From positions 17,286-81,285 of the forward strand of contig JALNZC010000013.1 in the NCBI GenBank assembly GCA_023229525.1: DNA of 64,000 nt. Direction: 5' to 3'. This document shows, one piece after another, positions 16,705 through 45,155 of the stretch. The DNA is from Bacteroidales bacterium (GTDB lineage Bacteria; Bacteroidota; Bacteroidia; Bacteroidales; FEN-979). Positions within the stretch are counted from its first letter, which is position 1, and every line of letters begins with the position of its first letter. The notes under the pieces were generated by a model. It searched no databases. It was not told the DNA's origin and saw only the letters and a program-made list of their open reading frames with translations. A program made the translations under genes and the position numbers.

Positions 16705-16723
16705 GATGAATAATTTAACGCTG

Positions 16724-16745: not shown

Positions 16746-16900
16746 TAAAATCCAAATTTTTTAGCAATTATTTTTTATTTTTTTTTATAAATTTGCTGTT
16801 TATTTATTAACAATGAAGGATCAAAGTTAAGGGTATTTGATGTAATCAGAAGGTTTTCACAGGTTCTTTACACTTTGATCCACCTTTAATCATTATCCAG

Positions 16901-29119: not shown

Positions 29120-29428
29120 ATGAAGAAAACATTTTTTGGTTTAATGGTTTGCGCAACCCTGATGGGAGCCTGCAGTAAGAGTTCCAACAGTTTTGTACCC
29201 GATTGCAGCGGGAGTACAAAATCATTCAGTAATGATGTTTTACCGGTATTTCAAAGTGCCTGTGTGAGCTGTCATTCGCAATATTCAGGTTATTCACAGA
29301 TATCGGCAGCTAAAACTACTATCAGAAGCAAAATCGTTGATGGCAGTATGCCCCCGGGAAATTCATTATCAACTGCACAGAAGAACAATATTGTTTGTTG
29401 GATTGATAATGGCGCTCCCAATAATTAA
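29120..29428 (+). CDS. small lipoprotein with one c-type haem motif (PSCyt1-like)
   Basis: 102 aa with a lipobox (LMGACS), a single CVSCH and a downstream GSMPP. Confidence 0.6.
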   Translation: MKKTFFGLMVCATLMGACSKSSNSFVPDCSGSTKSFSNDVLPVFQSACVSCHSQYSGYSQISAAKTTIRSKIVDGSMPPGNSLSTAQKNNIVCWIDNGAPNN

Positions 29429-29478: not shown

Positions 29479-30228
29479 TTAAAATTTCCTGATGCATCGT
29501 ACATTGAGATAGCTGTTTTTACTCGTCCAGCCTACATTTGGCGGTTCAATATCAAATTCTACAATCCATGCCCCTGGAATTGATTGTTCTGTCGAACTCC
29601 AATACCAAAATGGAGCAAATCCACCAATGATCGACTGGTGCACATACACTGAATCCAGTTCGTCAACCGAAGGAAGAAACCAATCGGTAAATCCGCCGGT
29701 TGTCAATGTGTCACATACACTTGCAGCAATACCCGGAGTCGGGCATACCGCGAGAATTGCAGCTGTGTTCGTAGCTCCGGTACCCAGGGCAGTTCCGTTG
29801 GCCCCTGGTATGGTATCTGTATCACAACCATAAAGATAATAATCTGGTAGGTCCGTTTCCGATGCAATTAATCCATGCTGGCCTGAAGGATCGAGATAGA
29901 AAACAACTCCCCCTCCCACATGTTGTCCCAAATAATAAGTTGAGGTGTTTATTTTTAACCATCCTACCCCGTCAAATATATATAGTCCGTTCCCGAATGG
30001 TCCATTTGCGGTTACATAAATCAATAAACCGGTTGTTGCATTCAAGGGTCGGTTGTTATAATCGATCCTTGGAAGTAAAAGTCCCTTGTTTTCAGATTTT
30101 ATTTCAAGCATTGCCGAAGAATCCGGAGCGCTTCCGTCATTATTTATTGATACCTGGCCCACTGCTGGCATATTGTATAACAAATGCATTAAAACCACAA
30201 TAAACAAAAAATGATAAAGTGTTTTCAT
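29479..30228 (-). CDS. DUF1566 (Lcl C-terminal-like) domain secreted protein
   Basis: 249 aa with a signal peptide. Motifs GGVVFYLDPSGQHGLIAS ... GFTDWFLPSVDELDSVY ... YWSSTE are typical of DUF1566. Confidence 0.65.
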   Translation of the reverse strand: MKTLYHFLFIVVLMHLLYNMPAVGQVSINNDGSAPDSSAMLEIKSENKGLLLPRIDYNNRPLNATTGLLIYVTANGPFGNGLYIFDGVGWLKINTSTYYLGQHVGGGVVFYLDPSGQHGLIASETDLPDYYLYGCDTDTIPGANGTALGTGATNTAAILAVCPTPGIAASVCDTLTTGGFTDWFLPSVDELDSVYVHQSIIGGFAPFWYWSSTEQSIPGAWIVEFDIEPPNVGWTSKNSYLNVRCIRKF

Positions 30229-30614
30229 AATTAATCCTCGTTAAAAATTATTATTCGAATGTATTTCTATCCAAATTTCTTCGGAACTCAAGATTTGGCG
30301 GGGCAAATCTTGAATATTATTGTCGGCCGTTTTGATTAAACTCCCGGATAAAGATCCGTCGATGACAAAGTTAATATAAAAACACCTAATTGAATATTTA
30401 GATATGTAAAATATTCACCTCATTACCAGTTTGGTCCTGATCCCGGATGCACCCTCTTCCATCGCAGAAACAGGCCATTTAAAAATCAGTATTGAAGACA
30501 GGATCACATTTCGTTAAGGTAGTTGCTGAAGATAAAACCGAGATGGTCAAATTGATCAAAATGAGGTAAGATAATTATCCAATCCCCGTTTACTTTTCAA
30601 ATGAAGGAAGTAGC

Positions 30615-31502
30615 CTACCGGTTATAGTTTCTTTCGGAATGACATCCCGGGGCGCATGTACCGCCGTTCTCCTGTGATACGAAATGGATGGGCATTTCCC
30701 ATTTACCGAAAGGAACCTTTTCGGCGATCAGTTGTGGGTTTAAGGCTCCGTGGACATTGTGGCAACTGATGCAGGTTCTGCTTTTACTGCCTTGGAGATG
30801 AAGATAATGCAGATTCTGCGTGCCACTCCTGAAACCCGTAGCAGTTCCGGTAGTTTTCAGCAGGAGCAAATCGCTGTTGTGGCAGGTAAAACAGACCAGG
30901 AAGTTTTCCTTGTGTGCTGAAGTATAAATCCCCTCGGGGAATGAACCATTCAGGATGAACGGGTTTGATGATCCGTGGGGCGTGTGACAGGCTGAACATC
31001 CCGGATTGGTTTTTCCACCGTGGAAATAGGTGCTGTTGATCACGTTCTTGCGGATATTCATAATGGGTTTGTTATCGGCGGTGACCGACTTGTTATGGCA
31101 GGTGAGGCAGGTTTTTGTCTCTTCGGCCAGCAGCAGTTTCTTTTCTGCTGATGCATGCGGAGAGTGGCAGTTCATGCAATTCTTCTCAGCAGTCACTGGT
31201 GGATGGGGGTGAGTGGCTTCTTGTGTAGCGGCCTGAATGTCGTCGTGGCAACTGAAGCATAGATCCGGGGTTTGTGCAGCCAGGGAGAAGCCTTTTTCTC
31301 CTTGGGAAGGGTGGGTATTACCGTTAGGCTTATGACAAATTCCGCAATTTTTTACAGCTGCTACATGTTTATACTCAGGTTCCATCAATTTTGAATGACA
31401 TTCGAGGCAATCCTGTGGATTTTTATACGGGACGGAGCTAAATACCAGGTTCAGTCTGGCCATATCAAACACAATAAAGATCATGACCAGGGAGAGTCTC
31501 AT
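30615..31502 (-). CDS. multihaem c-type cytochrome (8 CXXCH + 1 CX3CH)
   Basis: 295 aa with a hydrophobic N-terminus. Motifs are CLECH, CGICH, CFSCH, CMNCH, CLTCH, CSACH, CFTCH, CISCH plus C-terminal CAPGCH. The start overlaps the upstream barrel gene stop (ATGA at 31499-31502). Confidence 0.9.
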   Translation of the reverse strand: MRLSLVMIFIVFDMARLNLVFSSVPYKNPQDCLECHSKLMEPEYKHVAAVKNCGICHKPNGNTHPSQGEKGFSLAAQTPDLCFSCHDDIQAATQEATHPHPPVTAEKNCMNCHSPHASAEKKLLLAEETKTCLTCHNKSVTADNKPIMNIRKNVINSTYFHGGKTNPGCSACHTPHGSSNPFILNGSFPEGIYTSAHKENFLVCFTCHNSDLLLLKTTGTATGFRSGTQNLHYLHLQGSKSRTCISCHNVHGALNPQLIAEKVPFGKWEMPIHFVSQENGGTCAPGCHSERNYNR

Positions 31503-33466
31503 TTCCTGTACCAGTTAAAGTTTCTCACTATTTGAATAAATCCGCCCACATAATTGGTTTGCTCATGGAGATAATCACGCCGGAACACCTCCACGCCAAC
31601 TTTAAAGAATATCTGACGGAAAAGTGTGGTGAACTGGACACGACCGGTTAACAGGTTAAGGTCGATCTGCTGGCCTATTTGTTTACGATAACCGAATTCT
31701 ACGGAAAGAGTACTTTGATGCGCAAACTGGTATCCAACATTCCCGGTCACATCAATGAACTGCTGGCGTGTATTCTCAGCCGTCAGGTTGTAATCGCGCA
31801 TGTTCCCGCTGAGCGAAATGGTAACCTTGTATCCTAAATTTCCCTGCAGCTGTGCCCAATAACGGATAAGACGGTAGGGCACGATCGTACTCTGGTAATT
31901 CTCGAATTCCACACCGCCACTGGCAAACTTGTACTCAAGACGGCAGCCGTAAGTAGTTTGGGTGAAATAGTTCAAGGTAAGGTACTCCGCGGTTGTCAGG
32001 TTTGAATACCCCTGGTCGGCCCACTTGAAATATATCTCAAACAGGCGGTTGAAGAACGACACGCTGGCGTTGATGCATTGAAAATTGACATCATACTGAT
32101 AAGACCCCGGGAGCATGGCAACATAATCAACGTATACGCTCCCTTTATTTGGAATTTGTCCACCCGGCATACGCTGGATTTCCAGGAACGTGTTGCGCTG
32201 GATCAACACATAATCGAAATTGGGCTCATAGATGATCGTTCCGGTAACATCCTTCACAACTACCGAATTGAGATCAATATTGGCCTGGTTTAGCAAGGTC
32301 ATCTGACCGTCAGTAAGCACGTGCTCTTCGTGCAGGATAGGCTGGGGAACAGGTTCACTTGTATGTTTCTGACGTTGCCAATTATAAGTATAACCCAGCA
32401 TCAACCTGCCTTTTAAGGGGATTTTCTTCTCATAGTTTATATTGATACCCGCGATAAGGTTATTCTCTTTATAAAATGTATGACGGATCTGGTTATATTC
32501 CAGCGACAATCCCGAATTGAGGCTTTCGTACAACCGGTGACGCAGCATGGCCCGGATCGCATTCTGATTCATTTCCTGCGAATCCCTGCGGTAATCGTAA
32601 AAGTTATAACTTGTGCTTAAGCTGAAGCGTTTTGGGAGGTTCAGGTTTATGCTTTCATCTACCTGGATCCTGCGAAAAACGTCGGAGCCCCGCTGATCGA
32701 TACCGGAAATTGCTGAGATAAAGCTGTAATTGCGCTTTTTATCGAAGGAAATAGTATTGTTGAGACTCAGGTTATCGGAGATATTCCTTGATTCAGCGAT
32801 GTTTACATCATTCCTTGAATAGTCATTGTGAAAATAAATGAGTTGGCTGTTATCATAAGCAGAAAAGGATTTGTCGATCCGTGCCTGGATGGTTTGCTGT
32901 TGGGTGATGAATGAACGACCGGTAAGGATCTCAGTTTCGTACCATTTCCCCTGTTGGTAAGAGGCCTGGATGGGAAGGATCTTGTTCATCCAGATAAAAT
33001 TACCTCCAAAGTTGATGGTATTTGAGTGGATATTTGATAGGTTTTCACGACTGGTGTATACATTGTTATAGTTGAAAAAACCACTGAAGTTAATGGTCTT
33101 CTGGCGAAAGAAAGTGAGGGTGGCATCCAGTTTTTCCATAGTTCGTACCTCAGCCTGGTCGGGGATGACGAGAAAAAGATCCTTTCCGATAACCGGGTTG
33201 AATTCTCCGCCCAGGTGGAGCGAGATAAAATCAGGATGAATGAAATAACTGTCGGTGTTAAGTAGTATCCCACCATAAAACCGTGAACTTTCTTGGGTGT
33301 TGTAGATCTCGTTGGAATATCCGGCCTGGTAACGGTAATCGGCCCCAAGTTTCACAGCGCCATTTATCGAGTTGAGCGCCCAGAACCTCCGGGAAATGGA
33401 ATAATTCTGGGATAATCCCAGTGCGGGCAAAAGCAGCATTATGCAAAAAAAACGCAAGCCTTTCAT
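31499..33466 (-). CDS. large outer-membrane beta-barrel protein (candidate porin of a porin-cytochrome complex)
   Basis: 655 aa with a signal peptide (MLLLPALGLSQ) and no Cys-haem motifs. Tyr/Asn/Ser/Gly-rich with alternating amphipathic strand-like segments throughout. Sandwiched between two multihaem cytochrome genes. Confidence 0.65.
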   Translation of the reverse strand: MKGLRFFCIMLLLPALGLSQNYSISRRFWALNSINGAVKLGADYRYQAGYSNEIYNTQESSRFYGGILLNTDSYFIHPDFISLHLGGEFNPVIGKDLFLVIPDQAEVRTMEKLDATLTFFRQKTINFSGFFNYNNVYTSRENLSNIHSNTINFGGNFIWMNKILPIQASYQQGKWYETEILTGRSFITQQQTIQARIDKSFSAYDNSQLIYFHNDYSRNDVNIAESRNISDNLSLNNTISFDKKRNYSFISAISGIDQRGSDVFRRIQVDESINLNLPKRFSLSTSYNFYDYRRDSQEMNQNAIRAMLRHRLYESLNSGLSLEYNQIRHTFYKENNLIAGININYEKKIPLKGRLMLGYTYNWQRQKHTSEPVPQPILHEEHVLTDGQMTLLNQANIDLNSVVVKDVTGTIIYEPNFDYVLIQRNTFLEIQRMPGGQIPNKGSVYVDYVAMLPGSYQYDVNFQCINASVSFFNRLFEIYFKWADQGYSNLTTAEYLTLNYFTQTTYGCRLEYKFASGGVEFENYQSTIVPYRLIRYWAQLQGNLGYKVTISLSGNMRDYNLTAENTRQQFIDVTGNVGYQFAHQSTLSVEFGYRKQIGQQIDLNLLTGRVQFTTLFRQIFFKVGVEVFRRDYLHEQTNYVGGFIQIVRNFNWYRK

Positions 33467-33480
33467 CCCTTATTCCTGTT

Positions 33481-34035
33481 TCAGTTTAAAAAATACCGTT
33501 TATTCCCACCATGTGGATTATGACAAGTTGTACATGGCGATTCACCGATCTTCTCATGCTCCGGAGTTGCAAGGATACGGTCTGATTCATGGCAAGTGAA
33601 GCATAGCGCTTGTCCTGTTCGCAAAAGCAATTTTGGGTTCTCCGAATTGTGTGGGCTATGGCATTTGGTACAATTACCGGAGACCACTGGTCCATGCTCG
33701 AATTTCCCGTCATACGCATCATGACACTGATAGCAAAGACCAGGTTGAGGTTCGATCATGTTCCCAGGACGGTTGGGATCGTGACATACCCCGCATTTTT
33801 TAAGGGCAAACGGTGGATGTGCCGGGTGCTTCGATGCAGCAGTATTGGCAGCCAGTTCATTTAACAGGGCGGAATCCGATTTATTTCCGGTCTGTTTTGC
33901 AACCATTTTAACCGAATCATTCTTTTCGGGCACACCGTCGAAGAAGACAGTAAGCATCCTGTGCGAACATCCCAGTAAAAAGGAAAAAATGATCACTATC
34001 AGAGAAAGAGATATGTTTTTTTTTACCGGTGTCAT
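33481..34035 (-). CDS. pentahaem c-type cytochrome lipoprotein
   Basis: 184 aa with a lipobox (FSFLLGCS). Motifs are CGVCH, CYQCH, CTKCH, CFTCH, CTTCH. Confidence 0.9.
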   Translation of the reverse strand: MTPVKKNISLSLIVIIFSFLLGCSHRMLTVFFDGVPEKNDSVKMVAKQTGNKSDSALLNELAANTAASKHPAHPPFALKKCGVCHDPNRPGNMIEPQPGLCYQCHDAYDGKFEHGPVVSGNCTKCHSPHNSENPKLLLRTGQALCFTCHESDRILATPEHEKIGESPCTTCHNPHGGNKRYFLN

Positions 34036-34046
34036 CGTTATGTGTT

Positions 34047-35116
34047 TTATTTCGGGCTGATTGCACCGTACACATTGATCTTGTCGGGTCCGTATTGGTT
34101 GGTTACAAAGATGAGATAGTTAAGATTGTAAGCCTGATCCACATATTTATGGAAGTATTTCAGATTGTCATAATCGATGGTCACCTTTGCCGGAAGCCAC
34201 ATATCACCGGGGCCTTGATAAGGTCCGCCGAAAAAGAGCAGTACGCGACCAGTTTTATCAAAAATCTGCGTATTCTCGAAACTTGCATCCACCACATACA
34301 GGTTCTCTTTTTTATCTACGGCGATACCTTTGGGTCGTGCAAACTGGCCAAGGCCGCTCCCGTTGCTTCCCACAGATGACAAGTATTTCCCATCATGGGT
34401 ATAGGTCTTACATTAAAATCACCGATATCACTTACATAAACCTTATCGGGTGTAACATAAATGTTGGCCGGAGAATAAAGGTAACCAGGCTGACCCTGTT
34501 CGGCGTCAGGGAACGTATAGAGAAGTTCACGGGTATTCTTTTTATAAACGTTGATCCTGTTGTTTTTGATATTGGTTACCCAGATCGTATCGCCGGTCAC
34601 AAAGACATCGGTCGGCTTAAATTTATCGGTCTCGCCAAAAGCGCCTATATAGGTTCCGTCCGCTTCAAAGACAACTACTTGCATTCGAATTCCATCGGCA
34701 ACATATAGTTTTCCGGTATCGTCCACGAAACAATTGAGTGGAAGTTTGAGTTTCCCGTTGCCTATCGGTTCGAAATAGGTGAAGGTATTTTTCTCAAGGT
34801 CGATCACTTCAATGAGACCCATGCCTGTATCACAGATATAGATCTTTCCTCCATGCATAGCAATACCGTATGGTTTTTTAATCGGCTTTACCGGGGATTC
34901 GCCAAAAATGAACCGCGAAAATGCTGATTGTTTACCGGTGCTGTTCTCGGAACTGCTGAAAGAAGTCAGAAACTGGATCCTTGCTGTGTCTGGCGGGGGT
35001 GGGTAGGTAACCACTACTTTAAAGGTGGACGTTTTATGCAAACGCCTCGAGCAACCTGAAAAAAGCAGGAATAGGATTCCCGGGATCAGCAATACGGTAA
35101 GAATTTTTCTGTACAT
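34047..35116 (-). pseudogene. NHL-repeat beta-propeller lipoprotein, interrupted by a 1-nt frameshift (or assembly error)
   Basis: ORFs 34316..35116 and 34047..34382 overlap in different frames. Joined at about 34407-34411 they read ...VYVSDIGDFNV/KTYTHDGKYLSSVGSNGSGLGQFARPKGIAVD..., a continuous NHL repeat paralogous to the 40787..41794 protein. Lipobox LLFSGCS. Confidence 0.7.
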
Positions 35117-35145
35117 GGTTAGCTACGTTTCCCAAAAATGATTAA

Positions 35146-35172
35146 TTGGAGGGGATTAAATGGCCCTTCCAA
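35146..35172 (-). terminator. intra-operon hairpin (attenuator or partial terminator) after the tetrahaem cytochrome gene
   Basis: On the minus strand, TTGGAAGGG-loop-CCCCTCCAA (8/9 paired), followed by TTAATCATTTTT. Lies between the cytochrome stop (35206) and the NHL start (35116). Confidence 0.45.
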
Positions 35173-35205
35173 ATCATTGCTTCAACAGATAAAAATGATA
35201 AAAAT

Positions 35206-35835
35206 TTATTTGTTATGGCAGGTAAGGCAGAGGGCACTGGCGACATTGGTCTTCCGTAGCAGGTGCGCAATTCCGGTTCCGTTGTGTACATTGTGACAGG
35301 ATGCACATTCCAGTTTGTTATTGAACAACATGGTCTGTGAAATGGTTCCGGTACCGATTCCTGAAGGATGGGTAGTAGGATTCCACAGACCGGGGTCGGC
35401 TGCTGCCAGCGCAGCGTCGAAAACAAAGGAGATCGGGTGGTCATTCCGCAGATCAGTTCCCACATTGTTGACCGTTGTGATAAAATGAGTCCCGTTTGTT
35501 GTACCACCGAAGTTTTCGAGGGCTACGGTGCCGTCGTGGCAACTCAGACAGAGTTTCGAACTGCCGCTGGGTTGTGTAATGGTTGCTGCTCCGTTAAATG
35601 TCGGACTGGTGTATAGCTGGAAGGTTGCGGTAGTAGATCTGTGGTTCCATAGCGGAGCATCCGGAATGGTGATATCCGCATTGTGCGGTGTGTGACAGCA
35701 GATGCAAATCTGTTGGGTAGTATTCCAGGTCTGCGCTGAAAAATCGTGAGCAGAACCTACGATGGTTTGCCCTAAACCAACATTAACAAGAAAGAAAAAT
35801 GCCGGCAATGCAGTTAATAGTTTCTTGATTTTCAT
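35206..35835 (-). CDS. tetrahaem c-type cytochrome (secreted)
   Basis: 209 aa with a Sec signal (FFFLVNVGLGQ). Motifs are CICCH, CLSCH, CASCH, CLTCH. Colinear similarity to residues about 20-205 of the 559-aa cytochrome (PLWN, CLSCHDGT.AL, NDHP.SF.(Y/F)DA.LAAAD). Confidence 0.9.
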   Translation of the reverse strand: MKIKKLLTALPAFFFLVNVGLGQTIVGSAHDFSAQTWNTTQQICICCHTPHNADITIPDAPLWNHRSTTATFQLYTSPTFNGAATITQPSGSSKLCLSCHDGTVALENFGGTTNGTHFITTVNNVGTDLRNDHPISFVFDAALAAADPGLWNPTTHPSGIGTGTISQTMLFNNKLECASCHNVHNGTGIAHLLRKTNVASALCLTCHNK

Positions 35836-35936
35836 TTTTAGATTGTTTGTTAGTTTGTTTAATTGATATAATTTGAATTGATTATGAGCTCATTAATGTA
35901 ATTTGACAAAACCATTTTTATACTCCGGTAGGGCGA

Positions 35937-35954
35937 AGTCAAAGATTATGCCAA
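35937..35954 (-). promoter_or_regulatory. candidate sigma-54-type promoter (TTGGCAT-N5-TTTGACT, minus strand)
   Basis: The reverse complement of AGTCAAAGATTATGCCAA has GG/-12 spacing matching TGGCAC-N5-TTGC, except the -12 element reads TTGA. It lies about 100 nt upstream of the cytochrome ATG (35835). A 13/17-identical copy occurs at 41877-41894. Confidence 0.35.
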
Positions 35955-36204
35955 AAACAATAATAATAGGGATGGATGGCTATACGGCTATTATTTTTGC
36001 CCGGATTGAGTAAAAATTATAACAGGACAGTAGTTGTAAATGCCACAAATTTAATTACATAATAAATGTTTTCCAGATTATTTTCATATCCTGGAAGTTT
36101 ATCGTTTTTCTTTGGAAAAACAAGAGATCGAAAGAGTAACCGGAATATAAAATCCGGGTGGGTCAATTCACTCAATCCGGGGTGGGGCAAATTACCCAAC
36201 TGCC

Positions 36205-37584
36205 TCATAGACTGTATTTCTTCATCTTATAACGGAGGGTATCACGGGTAATCCCAAGCAATCTGGCCGCCCGGGTCTGATTTTGGCTGGTCTTTTTCAG
36301 TGCAGTGATGATGGTCTGTTTCTCAATGTCATACAATGATGTGCCTTCGGCGAAGAATCCTCCCACTTCTTCGGATGCACGTTGCAAAGGTTTCTGTTCC
36401 TCTTTAAGTTTCACCATTTCGGCAGGCAGGCTTTCAGCATGGATAATATCGCTTGTTTCAAGAATGACAGCCCGTTCGATAACATTGCGCAATTCCCGTA
36501 TATTTCCAGGCCAGTTGTACATTTCAAGAAGTTGTTTGGCCGCAGGATCGATCATCTGGATATTTTTTCTGAAGCGGGAATTGAAATATCTAAGGAAATG
36601 ATCGGAAAGTAATGGGATATCCTCCGTATGTTCACGCAGTGGCGGGATGATGATGCGGAAAACCGTAAGACGGTAATACAGATCTTCGCGAAAGGTCTTC
36701 TCTTCAATGGAACGTTTCATGTCTTTGTTGGTCGCGGCGATGATGCGGATGTCGACCGGAATATCGGCAGTACCGCTGATCCGGCGGATCACCCTGTTTT
36801 CGATTACGCCGAGAAGTTTCACCTGGGTAGCCTGGTTGATCTCCCCGATCTCATCCAGGAAAACGGTGCCTCCTTCAGCCATCTCGAACAGTCCTTTCTT
36901 AAGTTTTTTTGCATCGGTAAAAGCCCCCTGTTCATGACCGAAAAGTTCGCTCTCCAGCAGTGTTTCGGGGAGCGAGGAGCAATTGATTGTGACAAAGGGC
37001 TTACTGGCCCGGCTGCTTTCGTTGTGGATAGCGTGCGCGAAAAGGTCTTTCCCCGTGCCACTTTCACCCAGCAGCAGAATGGTGGTGGTATTGATCCGGG
37101 CTATCTTCTTCGACAACTGGATGATCTTGAGAATTTCGGGTGAGCGGCCGACAATATGGTCGAAGGTGACTTTTTCCTTGTGTTGCCGCCTGAGCAACTG
37201 AACCTCGTTGTTGACGCTGATCTTCTCCCGGATTATGTCTATAATAGCATAGATTTCCTTGAAGGAAAAGGGTTTGTTTATATATTCCTGGGCCCCGAGT
37301 TTCATTGCCTTGACCGCGGTATCGATCGAACCGTAAGCAGTCATAAAAACAATGTTGGTATCCTCGTGCATGGCCCGGATTCGTGTGATCACCTCCAGCC
37401 CCTGGATACCAGGGAGTTTATTGTCGACAAAGGTAATGTCGGGAAACTGTGATTCAAAGAGCTGCAGCCCCTCTTCCCCGCTCTCGGCGGTAAACACGGA
37501 ATATCCCTGCGCCTTCAATTTTTTTTCAAATGACCAGCGAATCAGCTGTTCATCATCGATCACCAATATTTTCAAAGTTTGCAT
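36205..37584 (-). CDS. sigma-54-dependent response regulator (NtrC family: REC-AAA+-Fis HTH)
   Basis: Receiver (ILVIDDE ... DNKLPGIQG), AAA+ Walker A GESGTGKDL, GAFTGA-type loop (GAFTDA) and a C-terminal HTH (RAARLLGITRDTLRYKMKKY). Confidence 0.95.
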   Translation of the reverse strand: MQTLKILVIDDEQLIRWSFEKKLKAQGYSVFTAESGEEGLQLFESQFPDITFVDNKLPGIQGLEVITRIRAMHEDTNIVFMTAYGSIDTAVKAMKLGAQEYINKPFSFKEIYAIIDIIREKISVNNEVQLLRRQHKEKVTFDHIVGRSPEILKIIQLSKKIARINTTTILLLGESGTGKDLFAHAIHNESSRASKPFVTINCSSLPETLLESELFGHEQGAFTDAKKLKKGLFEMAEGGTVFLDEIGEINQATQVKLLGVIENRVIRRISGTADIPVDIRIIAATNKDMKRSIEEKTFREDLYYRLTVFRIIIPPLREHTEDIPLLSDHFLRYFNSRFRKNIQMIDPAAKQLLEMYNWPGNIRELRNVIERAVILETSDIIHAESLPAEMVKLKEEQKPLQRASEEVGGFFAEGTSLYDIEKQTIITALKKTSQNQTRAARLLGITRDTLRYKMKKYSL

Positions 37585-37620
37585 CTAAAGGTATTGGTTC
37601 ATCCAACAAACGGGAACTTG

Positions 37621-39075
37621 CTAATTTACCGGAAGAGAAATATAGAATGTGCAGCCTTTGTCAGGATTGTTCTCAACCCTGATCTCCCCCTGGTGCATAT
37701 CAATGATCTCCTTGACAATGGCCAATCCAAGACCCGTTCCCTGGGTCCGGGTGGTGTAAAAGGGTTTGAAGATATCCGGCAGTTTGTCCTCAGGAATACC
37801 GATACCGGTATCCCTGACCGCGATTTGTACCTTTTTCCCGGCAGCCGACCAGGAGGTCTCATAAGTGATGGTGCCACGTACATCCGATGCCTGCACTGCA
37901 TTCAAACCCAGGTTCAGCAGCACATTCTCCACCTGTTCCGGGTCGAAATAAAAGAGCGGTATATCTTTGCCCAATTCCACCTTGAAATTAATCTTTTTAT
38001 TGATAGCCTGATTCTCAAGAAAAAAAACAACCGATTTAATAATTTCATTGATGTCGGCTTCCTGTGGATTAAGATCCTTCGAGCGGGAGTAGTTGAGGAG
38101 GTTTGAAACTGCTTTATTCACGCGGTTTGCCTGTCGCTGGATCTCCTCAAGTACCGGTTTATTTTCGGTATCCTTGGTTTCCTCAATAATAATTTCAATG
38201 GCATTCGCTATTCCGGTGATCGGGTTGCGGATTTCGTGGGCCAGCCGGGCCGACATCTCCCCGATAGTGGCCAGTTTCTGTGAAGTCCTGATCTCCTGTT
38301 GATGGTATTTCTGAAGCTCATTCTGTGTCTGCTGGAAATGTCCCACCATTTCGTTGAAACTTTTTCCCAACCGGCCCAATTCGGTTGACTTCGGGATAGT
38401 AAGTCGTTCGTTGAGGTTCCCCTGGTTAATGACATTGATGGCCTTTTGGAACTCAGAAAGCGACTTCCTGACGATCTTGTAATGGAGGGTTAAAACAAAC
38501 CCGAGAACAAGTAAGATCAGGATCACCGTGAAGATAAAGCTGAACTGACGGGTGAAAGCAATGGTGTCGCCCGGGGAGTGCATGGCGAAATCGATTCCGA
38601 TATACCCCAGGATGGGTTTGGTAGATGCATGACAATTATAGCAGGTCGGACTGTTTTTCAGGCGGATGATAGCCCGGGAAAAAGGAACGTTTGCATCCTG
38701 GAATGTCGTCAGGGTGATGTCGTTAGGTAAGGACGCAAGCTTCCGAAGGTTAATGGTATCGAATTCATTCGGATTGAATTGGGAAGGGTATAGCACTTTC
38801 CCATCGGCATCAATTAAATAAGAATGAATAACCTGCCCGTTCTTGTCAAGCTGACGCAGACTTGGTTTGATGATCCGGCCGTCATGCACGGCTACGATCT
38901 GGCCCTTCATCAGAGTGAGTACCGACAAAATATCCTCTTTTGCATTCTCGTAGATCTTTTTGCTGAGGTAATAATTATAGATGTAAAAAGAGAAGAAGGA
39001 CATTACCGTAATGACCACGATGATGGTTGTTACAATTTTAAACCGGAAGGAGGTAAAATTAATTTCTATTTTCAT
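37621..39075 (-). CDS. sensor histidine kinase with a periplasmic domain carrying a c-type haem-binding motif
   Basis: TM1 (IVTTIIVVITVMSFFSFYIY), an extracytoplasmic domain of about 150 aa containing SPTCYNCHAS, TM2 (FSFIFTVILILLVLGFVLTL), HAMP, H-box LAHEIRNPITG and G-box GTGLGLAIV. Confidence 0.9.
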   Translation of the reverse strand: MKIEINFTSFRFKIVTTIIVVITVMSFFSFYIYNYYLSKKIYENAKEDILSVLTLMKGQIVAVHDGRIIKPSLRQLDKNGQVIHSYLIDADGKVLYPSQFNPNEFDTINLRKLASLPNDITLTTFQDANVPFSRAIIRLKNSPTCYNCHASTKPILGYIGIDFAMHSPGDTIAFTRQFSFIFTVILILLVLGFVLTLHYKIVRKSLSEFQKAINVINQGNLNERLTIPKSTELGRLGKSFNEMVGHFQQTQNELQKYHQQEIRTSQKLATIGEMSARLAHEIRNPITGIANAIEIIIEETKDTENKPVLEEIQRQANRVNKAVSNLLNYSRSKDLNPQEADINEIIKSVVFFLENQAINKKINFKVELGKDIPLFYFDPEQVENVLLNLGLNAVQASDVRGTITYETSWSAAGKKVQIAVRDTGIGIPEDKLPDIFKPFYTTRTQGTGLGLAIVKEIIDMHQGEIRVENNPDKGCTFYISLPVN

Positions 39076-39107
39076 TCAATCCTGCATTAAAAAACGTTTT
39101 TTTAGGA

Positions 39108-40787
39108 TCAGTAAGTTTCAGGGTTATGATTTTCCCCATGGCATACAAGCCGGCAGCTGCCATGACGGACCCCGGTATCTGTGAACTGGATGATCCCTCC
39201 GGAAGGACTTACCACAGCGGTATTAAAATTAACGAGGTTGGAGTTGTTCGTTGTCGTGCCGGGACTGCCTATACCATGTGCATCATGGCAGACATTGCAG
39301 GGTGTGCGCTCTTCTACGATATGTAAACGATGTCTCGGGAAGCTATTGATATTGTTGATAATGTTGTTCCGGTTATGACAGGTGTAGCAAAGAGCATAGG
39401 CAGCGGCCGATTCCGTGGTATTATCGGCTGTAAGGTACTGTGCTTTCATGATATGTGGATAGATCGATCCGTGGGGGCCGGCCGGAGAACCGGTACCATC
39501 ACTGGCGTGACAGGCGGTACAGTAAATTACAGTGGAGGCCGTATTGGGTGCGATCAGATTCCCTGTGATCTCCGTATTGTTCCGTGGTCCGACCACCGGA
39601 TGGAACGAGGGGTTAGTCGTGGCAAATTCAAGACGTACATTGTTTTGTACGATAACGCGGGGAGAGGCCGGTGGGGCCATCCCTGGAGTATTGGTATGAC
39701 AACGGTAACAGATCTGGTACTCGTAAACAGCCGGGTTTACCTGACTCCCATTCTGGTCGATCCCTTTTACACCGGTGATAAAGCCATTCACGTTGGGCGC
39801 CACAGCCGTGGTATTGTTGGCCTGGTGGGCATTATGACAGTCGGTGCACTCTACATGGTTTGTGCTCACCAGCGCATTCTCAACAGGGTCGTGAATCCCT
39901 TGGTAGCCATATACATTGTGCTTGTAGGTTTTTGCAGCTTGAGCCTGGATGTTCTTAACTGCCACGTTTCCATTATGGCAATCGAGGCAGTTATTTTCCT
40001 CGGGAAGCCAATCCATCAAACGGAGTTTCCCGGCGGCGGAATGGGGATTATGACAGTTTTCGCACCCATTATCGGCAACTGTAGTATACGGGCTATGGAA
40101 CCAGGGATTGGGGGCGACGCCATTCCAGGTGCTGGTTGAGTTACGGTGGCTTGCAGTAACCCAATTTGCAGGTGTATGGCAAACAAGACAAAGGTTCGAT
40201 GCCTGTGTAGTAGCCACGAGAAAAGCTGAATAGATATTCTTGTGTGGATCATGACAGGAGGTACACTGGAGTTTACCGTTCTCCAACTTTACAGGACCGG
40301 TGAGGGTAGCCGGATTCACCAGTTGTCCGTCGGCGGCTGCGAGTGTAGCATCATAGATAAACGAGAGCGGGTGGTCGTTGGAGATATCCTTGGTGAGGTT
40401 GCTCACCCCAGTAGGCATTGTCGTAACGCCGCCAGCCATGATAATCGGCGTTGTACGGCTGATGATGCTTCCAAGGGCAATGGTACCATCGTGACAGGAG
40501 AGACAGAGGATCGATGCCCCGTCGGGTTGTCCGAGAATAGCCTGTGTAGTGGAACTGGCATAAAGGGTATAGGTTAGTCCCGGGTCAGACCGGTTCCACA
40601 GGGGGTGATCCGGCCGTGAATTATGAGGTGCATGGCAAAAAATGCATATTTCGGATTCTGTAGTTGCTTTGATGGCGCCGGGTCCACTTACCGACAGGTT
40701 ATGCTTTGTGGATACTATGGTTTGTGAATAAACAGCCAGCGGTATCCAGAACAACTGCAGCAGGCTGATCTTCAGTAGTCTAATCAT
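39108..40787 (-). CDS. multihaem c-type cytochrome (11 CXXCH + 1 CX3CH)
   Basis: 559 aa with a Sec signal. Motifs are CIFCH, CLSCH, CTSCH, CLVCH, CENCH, CLDCH, CTDCH, CYRCH, CTACH, CYTCH, CNVCH plus C-terminal CRLVCH. The start overlaps the upstream NHL gene stop (TAATG). Confidence 0.9.
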   Translation of the reverse strand: MIRLLKISLLQLFWIPLAVYSQTIVSTKHNLSVSGPGAIKATTESEICIFCHAPHNSRPDHPLWNRSDPGLTYTLYASSTTQAILGQPDGASILCLSCHDGTIALGSIISRTTPIIMAGGVTTMPTGVSNLTKDISNDHPLSFIYDATLAAADGQLVNPATLTGPVKLENGKLQCTSCHDPHKNIYSAFLVATTQASNLCLVCHTPANWVTASHRNSTSTWNGVAPNPWFHSPYTTVADNGCENCHNPHSAAGKLRLMDWLPEENNCLDCHNGNVAVKNIQAQAAKTYKHNVYGYQGIHDPVENALVSTNHVECTDCHNAHQANNTTAVAPNVNGFITGVKGIDQNGSQVNPAVYEYQICYRCHTNTPGMAPPASPRVIVQNNVRLEFATTNPSFHPVVGPRNNTEITGNLIAPNTASTVIYCTACHASDGTGSPAGPHGSIYPHIMKAQYLTADNTTESAAAYALCYTCHNRNNIINNINSFPRHRLHIVEERTPCNVCHDAHGIGSPGTTTNNSNLVNFNTAVVSPSGGIIQFTDTGVRHGSCRLVCHGENHNPETY

Positions 40788-41794
40788 TACTTTCCTCCGT
40801 TCATGAGTTGAAATACCTGTATTCTCGAATTATAGCTATCAGCAATATAGATCTGGTCGCGATTATCAATATAAATACCAGAGGGCATCCAGAACTCCAT
40901 GTTCCCGTGTCCGCGTGTACCAAAGGTGTATAGTAACTGCCCCTGCGGGTTAAAGATCTGTACGGCGCTGAACAGGGCATCAGCAATATAAATATTGCCG
41001 TAGGAGTCAGTGGCGATCCCTTTCGGACGGGCGAAATCGCCACTGCCGTCACCAGGTTTACCGAACTGAGAGATGAATTCGCCATCAGCGGAAAAGATCT
41101 GAATGCGAAAATTCAAGGCATCCACGATATATACTTTGCCATTCCTGTCGACCCACACTGAGGTTGGATAATTGAATTCACCAGGTGCAGTGCCTCTTTT
41201 CCCGAACCGTTTCAACACTTTCCCATATTCATCCAGCACTGATACCCGGTGGGCATTGGTCTCCACCAACCAGATCCGGTGATCCGACGGCACCCAGGCT
41301 ATCCCTGTAGGCCGGTCGAAAGTGGAGTCGGTAAGCAGTGTGAGCGACTTTTTATCCGGTGTACATAAAAAAATCTTATTATAATAGGAATCGGTGAAAA
41401 GAAAACTATTTTCCTTGAAAGGTGTAATACCTACCAGGGAGGGGAAATTTTTGTACTTTTTATTTCTGAAGTGGGTTATTTCACCCACTTTGTCTTTCAC
41501 CTTGAAGATCACCCCGTTCTCCTGGTCAAGTACATACAAAGAAAGGGAATCCTTTGCAATAACACCTACCGGACGTGTTAGTTCCATTGAGTTTTTTTTA
41601 CCCAGAATGAGTTCGGCGATGCGTGTACCGAGACTGCGTTTTGGTTTTTCATTGGCAAGTGGAGGATATTGAGATATCCAGGCAATATAAGGCGAATCCT
41701 CAACCTTTCGGACAAACTCCTGCGCCCGAGCCTGAAACACGCCACAGGTATAAATTATGATAAACAGGATGATGATTATTCTGTTAGTTTGCAT
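40787..41794 (-). CDS. NHL-repeat six-bladed beta-propeller protein (secreted)
   Basis: 335 aa with a signal peptide. Repeated NHL units, e.g. GEFNYPTSVWVDRNGKVYIVDALNFRIQIF, GDFARPKGIATDSYGNIYIADALFSAVQIF, MEFWMPSGIYIDNRDQIYIADSYNSRIQVF. Confidence 0.9.
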   Translation of the reverse strand: MQTNRIIIILFIIIYTCGVFQARAQEFVRKVEDSPYIAWISQYPPLANEKPKRSLGTRIAELILGKKNSMELTRPVGVIAKDSLSLYVLDQENGVIFKVKDKVGEITHFRNKKYKNFPSLVGITPFKENSFLFTDSYYNKIFLCTPDKKSLTLLTDSTFDRPTGIAWVPSDHRIWLVETNAHRVSVLDEYGKVLKRFGKRGTAPGEFNYPTSVWVDRNGKVYIVDALNFRIQIFSADGEFISQFGKPGDGSGDFARPKGIATDSYGNIYIADALFSAVQIFNPQGQLLYTFGTRGHGNMEFWMPSGIYIDNRDQIYIADSYNSRIQVFQLMNGGK

Positions 41795-41876
41795 CAGATC
41801 CGGGAGGGTTTTTTACAGGTAATCCGGAGATCGTCCGGGTTTCAATTCTTAACAAAATTAGAATTTTGTTGCAACT

Positions 41877-41894
41877 AGTCAAATTTAGTGCCAA
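41877..41894 (-). promoter_or_regulatory. candidate promoter for the NHL-cytochrome-kinase-regulator operon (TTGGCAC-N5-TTTGACT; alternatively a sigma-A -33/-7 promoter)
   Basis: The minus strand reads TTGGCACTAAATTTGACT, about 83 nt upstream of the ATG at 41794. The same TTTG is followed after 19 nt by TAATTTTG (a perfect TAnnTTTG), so a housekeeping promoter is an equally good reading. Confidence 0.35.
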
Positions 41895-41987
41895 ACAATA
41901 GAAATAGCGAAAGGAGAATACGATAAGTCCACAATACAATATTTTATTATCTTTTTCGTACTTTTATCTGGATTGAATATTAAAAAC

Positions 41988-44900
41988 ATGAAAAAAATAC
42001 CTACCCTGCTTTTCTCTTCACAGATGACCCTTTTGCTTTTGATGATCTTTGCCATAGCTATCGGGTCGGCCACTTTCATCGAGGAAAAATTTGACATAGT
42101 TACGGCTCGCCTATTGGTATACGATGCCTGGTGGTTCGAACTTGTGCTGTTGCTTCTCGCCCTCAATTTCATAGGGAATATCAGTCGATATAAGCTTTGG
42201 CGCAGAGAGAAGATATCAATCCTGTTATTTCATCTTGCGTTCATTCTCCTGATCCTCGGAGCAGGGATCACCCGTTACCTGGGTTTTGAAGGGATGATGC
42301 ATATACGGGAAGGGAATTCTTCACGGGTCATATATAGCTCCACTCCCTATCTTCAGGTGAATGCGACCGGGAAGGATTTCGATTTCTCTTTGAATAAACC
42401 CCTTCTATTCAGTGAGATGGTTCCTAACCGGTTCAGTTTTGGATTCGACACCAGGGGGAAGGGAAAGATTTCAGTTTCTTTCCATGATTATATGAAGAAT
42501 GCCGTATCACGGATCAATGAAAATGTAAGGGGAGGTACAACGATTGTTCAGATGGTCCTTGCCGCTTCGGAAGGCAGAGAAACAGTGCTCATCGAAAAAG
42601 GAGAGATTGTGGATCTGGGAAATGCTGTGATCGCGTACGAAAATAACAACCGGAAGGATGCCATCCGGCTTTCGGAAAGAAATGGGAAACTTTTTCTCTC
42701 ATCACCCTCCGGTATCGTGATGTCGTTCATGCATGGTATGGGCAGTACCAGTGATACTACTGTTAATCCACCGGTGACAGATACCATACAGGAATTTAAG
42801 GCAGGTTATATTTATAGTACTCAGGATGTCCTGCTGCTTTTCGTTAAACGATTTACCGGCGCTGAAAAAGAGTTGGTCCGTGGAAAGGCCAATGACCAGG
42901 GTTCCGAGGTGCTTTTCGTGGATGTGGCCTTTGAAGGCAAAACCCGCACTGTTCCTTTGTTCGTCGGCACAGGATACAATACGGCTGTAAAAGAACTCAA
43001 TCTGGATGGGGTTAGAATGAAACTCGCATACGGAAACAAAGAAATTACCTTACCCTTCTCCCTTCAGCTCGACGATTTCATCCTTGACCGCTATGCAGGA
43101 TCAATGAGCCCATCCTCATATGCCAGCGAGGTCACCCTCATCGATAGCGAAAGGAATCTCCGGGAAAAACGGCGGATATATATGAACCATGTGCTTGATC
43201 ACCGGGGCTACCGTTTTTTTCAGTCCTCATACGATATGGATGAAAAAGGGACGGTGCTTTCGGTGAACCACGACCGGGCAGGAACATGGGTCTCTTACGC
43301 CGGGTACATCCTGCTGGCAATCGGTTTCATCGGCACACTTTTCAACAAAAACTCCAGATTTCGCATCCTTAGCAAAGCAATCGACCGGATCCGGTCGGAA
43401 CGGAAGGCAGGGATCATGGTCACCCTTTTCTTCTTCCTTTTTGCCTCTGTTTCCTGCTTTGCCCAGCAAGAAACTGTTCAGCCATACGTCGGGGCCGATC
43501 ATGCGGAGAAATTCGGACACCTGTTGGTGCAGACTTTCGATGGACGTTTTGAACCGATTCATACCCTGGCCTACGATGTGATGCATAAAATTTCACGAAA
43601 GGACCAAATTCACACCGACAAAAAGGGCGATATGGATGCAATCCAGGTTTTCATGGATATGCTTATGGATCCCGAATACTGGAAACACCAGAAGATCATC
43701 TATGTGCGTGAAAAAGCTGTGAGGGATATCCTTGGTGTAGGCGGACAATATGCCTGTTTTTATGATTTTGTCGACCAGCAGTCGAACTACAAACTTTCCT
43801 CCTTTGCTGAAAAAGCCTTCCGCAAGAGACCTGCAGAGCAGAATGCTTTCGATAAGGAAATCATCAAAGCGGATGAACGGATCAACATATGGATGAGCGT
43901 TCAAAACGGTTCATTGCTCAAGATCTTCCCGGAGCAAAACGCGATCAATCACGGGTGGATCAGTTTTGTTGATACATTGGCCCGAGTGCCCCTCACCGGG
44001 AAATTGCGCGATATAAACAGCGATCTTCCCCTGAATCAGTTAGATTATAACAATTTAATGCGTTATTACCTTCAGGCTGTTTATGACGGCGCCCGGACGG
44101 GTGACTATACAAATGCCGACCTCGTGCTGAAGCACCTGGAAAGTACCCAGCGGGAAGGAACCCCCGAAAATCTTTTACCAACCATTTCCAAAATAAATAC
44201 AGAGATATGGTATAATAAATCGCAGATCTTTATAACACTACGGAATATTTACGGAGTACTCAGTCTGTTCCTGCTCGTGTTTGCCTTTGCGGAAAACCTT
44301 CGATCACGCAAGAGCCGTTTCGTTTCCTGGACATTAAATTTACTGACGATTGTGCTCGGTGCAGCATTTTTATACCACACCTGGGGTATGGCGCTCCGGT
44401 GGTATCTCACCGGACATGCCCCCTGGAGTAACGGTTATGAGGCATTGTTGTTGGTCGCCTGGGGAAGTCTCCTGGCCGGATTCTGTTTCATGAAATACTC
44501 CCGGATCACGCTGGCGGCCACAGCAGTACTTGCTTTTATGGTACTAATGACGGCAGGTCACAGCAGTTACGATCCACAGCTGACCAACCTTCAACCTGTG
44601 CTGAAATCCTATTGGCTGATCGTACATGTAGCGGTGATCACCGTAAGTTATGGATTCCTGGCGCTTGGTTTTTTACTTGGGCTGATCAATATGTTCATCT
44701 TTCTTTTCAAAACGAAAATCCAAGCCTTCCGCCTCGACCTGATTATCAGGGAGCTGACCCTGACCAACGAAATGACGCTGATCATCGGAATTGTGCTGGC
44801 GACCATCGGTACCTTTCTTGGCGGTGTCTGGGCCAATGAATCCTGGGGCCGGTACTGGGGCTGGGATGCCAAGGAAACATGGGCGTTGGTCATCGTGATC

Positions 44901-45155
44901 ACCTACGCGATTATCTTGCATCTTAGATTCGTTCCAGGGTTAAAGGGAAATTTTATTTTCAACATAGCGTCAGTGATTGGTTTCGGAAGTGTGATCATGA
45001 CTTTTGTCGGGGTTAATTATTATCTTTCGAAAGGACTTCACAGTTATGCTGCTGACGATAAAAAGGTGTTTCCTTTGTGGGGTTGGGGATTAATTCTGGG
45101 GATAATCTTACTCATGATTGTGGCAGGTTATAGGGAACGTTTGTCGAAGAAATGA
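41988..45155 (+). CDS. ccsBA: fused System II cytochrome c biogenesis protein CcsBA (ResB-CcsA)
   Basis: 1055 aa from the ATG at 41988 (the ORF track begins at TTG 41973). The N-terminal part is ResB-like with TMs and a large soluble domain. The C-terminal part is CcsA-like with the Trp-rich WWD motif WGRYWGWDAKETWALV. Confidence 0.9.
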   Translation: MKKIPTLLFSSQMTLLLLMIFAIAIGSATFIEEKFDIVTARLLVYDAWWFELVLLLLALNFIGNISRYKLWRREKISILLFHLAFILLILGAGITRYLGFEGMMHIREGNSSRVIYSSTPYLQVNATGKDFDFSLNKPLLFSEMVPNRFSFGFDTRGKGKISVSFHDYMKNAVSRINENVRGGTTIVQMVLAASEGRETVLIEKGEIVDLGNAVIAYENNNRKDAIRLSERNGKLFLSSPSGIVMSFMHGMGSTSDTTVNPPVTDTIQEFKAGYIYSTQDVLLLFVKRFTGAEKELVRGKANDQGSEVLFVDVAFEGKTRTVPLFVGTGYNTAVKELNLDGVRMKLAYGNKEITLPFSLQLDDFILDRYAGSMSPSSYASEVTLIDSERNLREKRRIYMNHVLDHRGYRFFQSSYDMDEKGTVLSVNHDRAGTWVSYAGYILLAIGFIGTLFNKNSRFRILSKAIDRIRSERKAGIMVTLFFFLFASVSCFAQQETVQPYVGADHAEKFGHLLVQTFDGRFEPIHTLAYDVMHKISRKDQIHTDKKGDMDAIQVFMDMLMDPEYWKHQKIIYVREKAVRDILGVGGQYACFYDFVDQQSNYKLSSFAEKAFRKRPAEQNAFDKEIIKADERINIWMSVQNGSLLKIFPEQNAINHGWISFVDTLARVPLTGKLRDINSDLPLNQLDYNNLMRYYLQAVYDGARTGDYTNADLVLKHLESTQREGTPENLLPTISKINTEIWYNKSQIFITLRNIYGVLSLFLLVFAFAENLRSRKSRFVSWTLNLLTIVLGAAFLYHTWGMALRWYLTGHAPWSNGYEALLLVAWGSLLAGFCFMKYSRITLAATAVLAFMVLMTAGHSSYDPQLTNLQPVLKSYWLIVHVAVITVSYGFLALGFLLGLINMFIFLFKTKIQAFRLDLIIRELTLTNEMTLIIGIVLATIGTFLGGVWANESWGRYWGWDAKETWALVIVITYAIILHLRFVPGLKGNFIFNIASVIGFGSVIMTFVGVNYYLSKGLHSYAADDKKVFPLWGWGLILGIILLMIVAGYRERLSKK

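Follow-up and report, generated by a model that had tools for sequence, protein, structure and literature searches.

An OmcE-family tetrahaem cytochrome and the conserved stem-loop that follows its gene in a Bacteroidales genome

Background

So far, cytochrome nanowires are known from only a handful of organisms, and their assembly, anchoring and regulation are still open questions. The described filaments closest to the subject of this study are built from the tetrahaem cytochrome OmcE, for which structures are available from Geobacter sulfurreducens (7TFS; PMC12954529) and, as a bundled filament, from Desulfuromonas soudanensis (9YUQ; preprint 10.1101/2025.10.22.684050). One haem of OmcE takes a histidine ligand from the neighbouring subunit, and an inter-subunit histidine-haem link of this kind is found in both OmcS and OmcE (PMC9473688). 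The smallest omcE clusters consist of two multihaem cytochromes, two beta-propeller lipoproteins, OmcE itself and a large beta-barrel, and the phyla listed as carrying such clusters are Thermodesulfobacteriota, Pseudomonadota, Aquificota, Campylobacterota and Nitrospirota (preprint 10.1101/2025.10.22.684050). Here we analyse a stretch of 64,000 nucleotides (nt) from a Bacteroidales bacterium (assembly GCA_023229525.1, contig JALNZC010000013.1, positions 17,286 to 81,285), referred to throughout as the window, which carries a gene for a tetrahaem cytochrome of 209 amino acids (aa) and, directly downstream of it, a stem-loop that separates this gene from those of a candidate export and electron-transfer apparatus.

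A second described system has a comparable composition. The uetABCDEFGHIJ cluster of 'Candidatus Tenderia electrophaga' encodes a tetrahaem cytochrome (UetA), a beta-barrel with 28 predicted strands (UetC), the NHL proteins UetH and UetI and an undecahaem cytochrome (UetJ), together with ccsAB; it occurs in Tenderiales and also in some Gallionella, and was proposed to serve electron uptake in an aerobic autotroph (PMC10734462; preprint 10.1101/2022.05.06.490989). The omcE and Uet clusters, like OmcE filaments, have thus been described before. The literature that we searched did not yield a description of the cluster in Bacteroidota or its sister phyla, which is not proof that none exists. Bacteroidota, Ignavibacteriota and Calditrichota, which include abundant anaerobes and are dominant phyla in many sediments, aquifers and digesters, are not regarded as nanowire producers.

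The tetrahaem cytochrome belongs with OmcE

The cytochrome gene and the elements at its 3' side are located as follows.

35206..35835, minus strand: OmcE-family tetrahaem cytochrome, 209 aa, recognised by four CxxCH motifs and by PDB sequence matches
35146..35172, minus strand: conserved stem-loop between the cytochrome and NHL genes, a candidate partial terminator or 3'-end stabiliser, recognised by sequence, alignments, covariation and enrichment
35134..35145, minus strand: U-rich tail UUAAUCAUUUUU, interrupted, seen in the sequence and missed by a terminator scan

An initial annotation of this DNA, prepared from the sequence without database searches, had described the open reading frame (ORF), its four haem motifs and its C-terminus, and had compared the product with the filament cytochromes OmcE and OmcS. 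The ORF is present as described, with CICCH at residue 44, CLSCH at 96, CASCH at 177 and CLTCH at 203, and with the C-terminus ALCLTCHNK. Residues 1-22 form a Sec signal peptide (the AlphaFold model has a helix at 2-21), and the predicted mature N-terminus, Gln23, is nearly invariant among relatives, in keeping with the 'Q-rule' of signal peptidase I substrates in Bacteroidetes.

When all PDB sequences were searched with phmmer, the 209-aa protein matched 7TFS chain A over residues 8-209 (E 1.7e-27) and 9YUQ over its full length (E 7.7e-24), and a family profile made from 49 members strengthened both matches (2.9e-41 and 1.6e-36, respectively). These two OmcE entries were the sole significant matches, with the single sequence and with the profile alike. 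The eight haem-ligand histidines (H30, H48, H51, H100, H133, H181, H184 and H207) are invariant in the 49 sequences, and the four motifs (C44/C47/H48, C96/C99/H100, C177/C180/H181 and C203/C206/H207) align with OmcE residues together with the four additional histidines H30, H51, H133 and H184. The likeness to OmcE is hence well founded, while the likeness to OmcS, which is hexahaem (PDB 6EF8), did not survive the same searches: no OmcS chain was among the matches, even at E<=10 with the single sequence or at E<=1 with the profile. Nor did the searches with the 209-aa protein match any archaeal cytochrome filament, and the Pfam and NCBIfam scans returned generic multihaem labels (e.g., Paired_CXXCH_1) and no OmcE-specific family. 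Two of the haem-context strings in the initial annotation need correction, since His30 stands 13 and not 6 residues before the first cysteine, and the third motif reads CASCHNVH rather than ending in CHDxH. On these alignments, we consider it nearly certain that the protein is a member of the OmcE superfamily.

Natural proteins with two to four tandem OmcE-like modules (P0361, P0362, P0363, P0365 and P0471) are among the best database matches, and their junctions bear on how subunits might be arranged. Of 11 measured junctions, 7 have a stretch of 8-9 residues between the final haem-motif histidine of a module and the first histidine of its successor. Monomeric relatives have a C-terminal tail of two residues (45 of 46 proteins) and an N-terminal arm of 6-7 residues counted from the conserved glutamine, which again makes 8-9. 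As the junction length equals tail plus arm, each fusion resembles a series of subunits connected end to end without any extra linker, and such fusions would be expected if the C-terminus of one subunit abutted the N-terminus of the next in an assembled chain. The tandem-module proteins look like covalently pre-assembled pieces of haem wire; the C-terminal regions of P0361 (1400 aa), judged by eye, seem to be immunoglobulin-like and BNR-like propeller repeats.

A conserved stem-loop follows the cytochrome gene

The stem-loop has a 5' arm UUGGAAGGG (35172-35164), a 9-nt loop and a 3' arm CCCCUCCAA (35154-35146), with eight of the nine positions paired (five of them G-C) and an A·C mismatch at 35167/35151. 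The initial annotation had placed a GC-rich hairpin of nine pairs with a T-run at exactly this position; the position stands, but one pair is lacking and the T5 run (35138-35134) begins 7 nt past the stem, so that the element is not a textbook terminator. The best 40-nt hairpin in the spacer has a folding energy of -9.7 kcal/mol. Because the U-rich tail is interrupted, the window terminator is non-canonical and probably weak.

Comparison among relatives supports the structure. The same stem with different loops is found in eight close relatives (75-95% protein identity), where 7 of 10 pairs show changes on both sides, for example from UUGG/CCAA to CCGG/CCGG. In the alignment of these stems 88.8% of cells are paired, a value reached by none of 500 shuffles and compared with 44-66% in controls slid along the alignment; the sole mismatch at pair 50-69 is that of the window. 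At a wider scale, a hairpin of -10 kcal/mol or better follows the homologous gene in 88% of 76 loci, compared with 35% of shuffles, and the mean energy of the best hairpin is -17.0 kcal/mol against -9.1 in shuffles; at 55 of the 76 loci the hairpin beats all ten of its own shuffles. Under a strict definition of a terminator (at least six pairs, at least three of them G-C, and a T-rich tail within 2 nt), 32 of 88 junctions between the subunit gene and the next gene carry one where 1.7 are expected, and the other junctions of the cluster have between 0 and 4. The spacer after the subunit gene is also long, with a median of 105 nt compared with about 0-40 nt elsewhere in the cluster. Geobacter omcE itself is among the genes with a strict terminator, its hairpin lying 3' of the gene (GGGTGGACTCCGGTCCACCC-T7 / AAAAAGGGTGGACTCCGGTCCACCCTTTTTTT). 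The arrangement of subunit, hairpin and machinery that the initial annotation had noticed here is consequently a conserved property of the cluster family.

In the window the hairpin lies 29 nt from the start codon of the NHL gene, and neither the Bacteroidota -7 motif TAnnTTTG nor a sigma-54 motif occurs in the 300 nt preceding the NHL ATG. Given this short gap and the lack of either motif, expression of the downstream genes is most simply explained by read-through. An Rfam scan of 30000-42500 returned nothing relevant. We infer from the sequence comparisons that the element acts as a terminator or attenuator; it is likely that it sets the expression of the subunit relative to the downstream genes, and it probably lets the cell make far more subunit than assembly machinery.

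Gene order is conserved across several phyla

The wider comparison is drawn from a scan of one genome per species, which gave 497 relatives, from which the best 80 loci were kept. By the taxon labels of the metagenome-assembled genome (MAG) records, these are mostly Bacteroidota, Ignavibacteriota/Chlorobiota and Calditrichota, with some KSB1, Gemmatimonadota and Proteobacteria. The order of subunit, NHL, small cytochrome, barrel and cytochrome is found again at most of the 80 loci: in 63 of 71 the subunit gene is followed by an NHL gene, and in 54 of 63 a barrel lies within 5 kilobases (kb). A pair of NHL and undecahaem genes is present at 35 of the 37 loci with enough flanking sequence. The family as a whole is large: when searched for exhaustively, it gave 390 cluster representatives at E<=1e-30, rising to 3142 at E<=1e-10.

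Many related loci also contain one to three extra OmcE-like paralogues of 30-50% identity, either directly after the main gene or at the end of the operon (L001:14890-15932, L023:15822-17328, L058:10922-11581, L062:10295-11775, and L075:10701-11357 and 16518-18003). These could be minor or alternative subunits. The window has no extra paralogue genes of this kind.

Genes of the cluster

All parts of the minimal omcE cluster are present in the window. The genes other than the subunit and the regulators are listed here.

34047..35116, minus strand: NHL beta-propeller lipoprotein, lipobox LFSGC, homologous to the NHL protein of the Geobacter cluster; the ORF at 34316-35116 continues in another frame to 34047
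33481..34035, minus strand: pentahaem lipoprotein cytochrome, lipobox LLGC; E 6e-33 to a cytochrome of the Geobacter cluster
31499..33466, minus strand: outer-membrane beta-barrel, 655 aa, about 29 strands, without a Pfam or NCBIfam match; assigned by AlphaFold and Foldseek
30615..31502, minus strand: cytochrome with eight CxxCH motifs and one CxxxCH; E 1e-57 to the 370-aa cytochrome of the Geobacter omcE cluster
39108..40787, minus strand: UetJ-like cytochrome, 559 aa, with 11 CxxCH motifs and one CxxxCH; assigned by motif count and its OmcE-like module
40787..41794, minus strand: NHL beta-propeller, 335 aa; E 2e-50 to the NHL protein of the Geobacter omcE cluster
41973..45155, plus strand: fused ResB/CcsA (CcsBA) of system II cytochrome c maturation, 1060 aa, divergent from the cluster

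The genes downstream of the hairpin therefore run, on the same strand, from NHL through the five-haem cytochrome and the 655-aa barrel to the eight-haem cytochrome, in agreement with the NHL, barrel and cytochrome genes of the initial annotation. Its barrel assignment is upheld by an AlphaFold model based on 55 homologues (predicted local distance difference test score, pLDDT, 92.1), which has about 29 long strands and a small inserted domain. With this model Foldseek returned only outer-membrane barrels, the best being MtrB of the Mtr porin-cytochrome complex (6R2Q_B; template modelling score 0.42), and a profile of the barrel found nothing among PDB sequences.

Intact relatives of the downstream NHL protein are 356-361 aa long. 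The equivalent gene is also split in the Bacteroidota-type locus L089 (2200-3286) and in one G. sulfurreducens assembly, L085 (8340-9423), and it is intact in L084; such splits might reflect errors of assembly or a repeated loss of the propeller. In the window the final cytochrome of the operon (30615-31502) has 295 aa; in the closest relatives (L081 and the contig of P0002, an 89%-identical relative) it has 431-433 aa, and its length in more distant loci ranges from about 290 to about 600 aa.

Residues 1-204 of the undecahaem protein are an OmcE-like tetrahaem module with 42% identity to the 209-aa protein and with all eight histidines kept, and this module matches Geobacter OmcE more closely (E 2e-37) than does the standalone protein (E 7e-30). 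A one-base overlap between the frame of the 335-aa NHL protein and the start of the undecahaem gene hints at translational coupling, and the undecahaem gene is always found paired with the NHL gene upstream of it. Two further ORFs lie at the margins of the region: a 417-aa protein with a Recombinase domain follows CcsBA (region 41973-46405, plus strand), overlapping the end of the fusion gene by 4 nt, and a predicted lipoprotein of 102 aa with a single CVSCH motif (29120-29428, plus strand) lies just past the cluster on the opposite strand.

Promoter and regulatory genes

The regulatory features are as follows.

35939..35953, minus strand: sigma-54 type -24/-12 promoter TGGCAT-N5-TTGA, about 102 nt upstream of the cytochrome ATG; recognised by conservation and by rarity in the window
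41879..41893, minus strand: second sigma-54 type motif TGGCAC-N5-TTGA, about 85 nt upstream of the NHL-undecahaem-kinase-regulator operon; recognised by pattern match
36159..36199, minus strand: two 17-base-pair (bp) palindrome-like sites, TTGGGTAATTTGCCCCA and TTGAGTGAATTGACCCA, candidate sites for an enhancer-binding regulator; recognised by position and by repeats in relatives
36205..37584, minus strand: NtrC-type sigma-54 activator (receiver, AAA+ Sigma54_activat and HTH_8), from a domain scan
37621..39075, minus strand: sensor histidine kinase with a periplasmic CxxCH (CYNCH, residue 145), from a domain scan and the motif

The cytochrome gene is indeed the first after its promoter, as the initial annotation had it, and that promoter is of sigma-54 type, with GA in place of GC in the -12 element. 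The block TTTTTGGCATAAT(C/A)(T/A)TTGA is invariant among aligned close relatives within a spacer that is otherwise variable. More widely, the pattern (T/A/C)GGCA(C/T)-N5-TTG(T/A/C) is found 33-105 nt upstream of the ATG at about 24 of the 31 loci with a response-regulator-like gene upstream and at few others, and a motif score of at least 10 of 12 is reached by 21% of loci compared with 0.6% of shuffles. Exact matches to TGGCAY-N5-TTGH occur twice in the 64 kb of the window, at 35939-35953 and 41879-41893; the second of these, which precedes the NHL-undecahaem operon, lacks conservation in more distant loci.

The adjacent kinase retains its periplasmic CxxCH in 15 of 15 full-length orthologues from related loci, which suggests a haem-based redox sensor, a candidate c-type-haem protein that would control the sigma-54 promoter. 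The haem-motif kinase and the NtrC-type regulator beside it probably control the cytochrome gene. The two palindrome-like sites are about 210-250 bp upstream of the promoter. Their count in the window (seven observed, three expected) is not significant alone; tandem repeats of such sites in relatives L081 and L083, taken with the position, favour the candidate assignment. A near-perfect copy of the putative activator-site palindrome of L081, GTGGGTTATTTCACCCA, stands at 41471-41487 within the coding region of the 335-aa NHL protein. Directly after the regulator gene, beside the putative activator sites, there is a terminator-like hairpin CCGGATTTTATATTCCGG with a T-rich tail (36140-36157, minus strand), which may insulate the cytochrome promoter from upstream read-through. 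Other promoter candidates were set aside: sigma-70 type matches were not above chance (27 against 21.7 expected, with a model unsuited to Bacteroidota), and the one copy of TAnnTTTG, at 36053, is poorly conserved.

A model and its alternatives

We suggest that a redox signal would be sensed by the periplasmic haem-containing kinase and passed to the NtrC-type regulator, which would activate the sigma-54 promoter that lies about 100 nt before the cytochrome gene. The stem-loop after the stop codon would terminate or stabilise most transcripts, and the subunit messenger RNA would therefore come to lie far above the read-through message, with limited read-through supplying the NHL propeller, the pentahaem lipoprotein, the barrel of about 29 strands and the octahaem cytochrome. 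Sec would export the subunit, the adjacent CcsBA would supply its haem, and the protein would then pass through the barrel or onto it. Outside the cell, subunits would stack head to tail on the barrel as a haem wire, with the OmcE-like head of the undecahaem protein as a possible site of assembly. Taken as a whole, a model of an OmcE-family subunit in an OmcE/Uet-type cluster for extracellular electron transfer seems to us reasonably probable. The sequence data themselves establish the relationship to OmcE, the fold of the barrel, the shared gene order, the covariation and enrichment of the hairpin and the association of the sigma-54 motif with the regulator. From these we infer the ratio of transcripts and the extracellular location and polymerisation of the 209-aa protein, and we would put the chance that it truly forms filaments a little below even.

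A number of observations weigh against the model. Identity between the 209-aa protein and Geobacter OmcE is low, at 36% (E 7e-30). An AlphaFold2 model of the protein, made without haems from the 49-sequence alignment, reached a pLDDT of 50.4, too poor for fold comparison, and gave one meaningless match in Foldseek, so the comparison with OmcE rests on the PDB sequence and profile searches. A neighbour-joining tree and profiles separate standalone proteins of the window type from the N-terminal modules of undecahaem proteins, and in the tree the Geobacter and Desulfuromonas OmcE branch apart from both groups; scored against the profiles, Geobacter OmcE gives 168 bits with the undecahaem module and 138 with the standalone proteins, and Desulfuromonas OmcE 137 and 130. 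The window protein thus sits outside the clade of the two proven filament formers, in a standalone, 'UetA-like' sister clade, and since profiles and tree place these proteins apart from proven OmcE, we classify it as having OmcE-superfamily membership and OmcE architecture but not as a demonstrated orthologue. As to the hairpin, the terminator scan of the window did not report 35146-35172, the spacer that contains it folds no better than shuffles (z -0.27), and it is the weakest in its own subclade, with its U-tract interrupted. The 655-aa barrel has no detectable homology to the 752-aa barrel beside Geobacter omcE by BLAST, phmmer or hhalign (probability 9%). Finally, the downstream NHL gene is interrupted by a 1-nt deletion near 34410, where a relative reads AATGTGAAGA and the window AATGT-AAGA.

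Part of this evidence would also suit a non-polymerising tetrahaem cytochrome, extracellular or associated with the barrel, in a porin-cytochrome conduit, with the hairpin as a monocistronic terminator and the downstream genes under a promoter of their own. The Uet cluster, which has the same parts list, was modelled as a conduit, although its authors themselves consider polymerisation possible (preprint 10.1101/2022.05.06.490989; PMC10734462). Only two members of this very large family are proven filaments, the window protein falls outside their clade, and the element has, at many loci, the form of a strong canonical terminator, as would be expected of a full stop. Against a conduit, all eight haem-ligand histidines are kept, one of which acts across subunits in OmcE (PMC9473688); the protein has the OmcE-like architecture of a standalone chain of about 210-230 aa that ends two residues past its last CxxCH; the tandem-module fusions without extra linker argue for head-to-tail contact; and the 29 nt between hairpin and NHL gene, with neither motif nearby, count against a separate promoter. 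On balance a conduit of this kind appears somewhat unlikely to us.

Two other explanations concern the hairpin and the integrity of the locus. The hairpin might mainly protect the 3' end of the upstream message from exonucleases and not act as an attenuator, in which case the outcome would still be more subunit than machinery. The interrupted U-tract in the window subclade (UUUAUCGUUUAU or UUAAUCAUUUUU), poor for intrinsic termination, and a stem that covaries in spite of it, speak for protection; yet most other lineages, including Geobacter, have a canonical GC-rich stem with a direct T-run, so that termination looks like the ancestral role, and we find protection as the main function distinctly unlikely. 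That the cluster is decaying in this genome, with nothing over-expressed or polymerised, is less plausible again, and we give it little credence. The split NHL gene, the mismatch that the window alone carries at pair 50-69 and the shortened last cytochrome could be read in this way, but every other cluster gene is intact, the NHL frame is still open and conserved past the deletion, which points to a mutation of very recent date or to a fault in the assembly, a barrel protein deposited from a Bacteroidales MAG is 100% identical to that of the window, and the last cytochrome varies widely in length across loci.

Our preferred model, in which an OmcE-family subunit is made in excess over an export and electron-transfer apparatus, can be extended to the lineages that share the cluster. 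On this bolder proposal Bacteroidota, Ignavibacteriota and Calditrichota would build OmcE-type filaments, with the undecahaem protein as base or primer, the haem kinase and sigma-54 promoter as switch, and the hairpin setting the excess of subunit; the OmcE-like undecahaem head would dock on the C-terminal end of the filament, in the head-to-tail manner of the tandem-module fusions, and so wire it to the barrel of about 29 strands. In its entirety we regard this as a rather improbable conjunction.

Relationship to known systems

With respect to the literature searched, what is new is the spread of the cluster in Bacteroidota, Ignavibacteriota and Calditrichota, a covarying terminator common to these loci and Geobacter, control by sigma-54 and a haem kinase, and the OmcE-like head of the undecahaem protein. 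The OmcE family has thousands of metagenome homologues, and three of these features touch questions that nanowires pose: the covarying hairpin after the subunit gene, as in Geobacter omcE, is likely a device for setting stoichiometry, the sigma-54 promoter with the haem-motif kinase is likely a redox switch, and the undecahaem protein with its OmcE-like head is a candidate anchor. Record names suggest Ignavibacterium album and Caldithrix abyssi as cultured carriers, which would make these ideas testable.

The layout has a superficial parallel in pilus and fimbrial operons, in which the gene for an abundant subunit comes first and is followed by a stem-loop, as after papA, and then by genes for low-copy assembly machinery. 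This is analogy only, as the proteins and the secretion route are unrelated. OmcS is likewise no close relation, being hexahaem and without detectable sequence similarity to the window protein in the PDB searches, but its companion (osc) cluster in Geobacter presumably follows the same general logic of a secreted multihaem subunit with beta-propeller and channel-like partners.

Judged by domain content and haem count against the published description, the Uet cluster and the window have the same parts list. Some parts are peculiar to Uet, namely the peptidylprolyl isomerase (PPIase) UetB, the cupredoxin UetF and the trihaem c7 cytochromes UetD, UetE and UetG; Pfam and NCBIfam scans of nine window cluster genes found no PPIase or cupredoxin domain, and the window has the five-haem and eight-haem cytochromes instead.

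OmcE of D. soudanensis WTL (DSOUD_2954; 9YUQ), which forms antiparallel filament bundles, is a full-length homologue encoded in a minimal cluster without glycosylation genes, as here; the organism differs in phylum, and the five phyla of the preprint cited above exclude Bacteroidota, Ignavibacteriota and Calditrichota. Geobacter OmcE (GSU0618; 7TFS) and the window protein are both tetrahaem chains of about 210-230 aa with a Sec signal peptide, with aligned CxxCH motifs and four further aligned histidines, and with two residues after the last motif (CHNK here, CHKK in Geobacter). Their clusters have in common the terminator hairpin after the subunit gene, the NHL propeller, a large barrel and homologous multihaem cytochromes, and the ResB/CcsA fusion of the window has its counterpart in resB and ccsB next to the Geobacter cluster. 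They differ in gene order and in barrels that are not detectably homologous, and the glycosyltransferase block beside Geobacter omcE (L084) has no counterpart in the window stretch examined (about 25-50 kb). Beyond the Geobacter plan, the window cluster has a two-component system, sigma-54 control and an undecahaem cytochrome that carries an OmcE-like module of its own.

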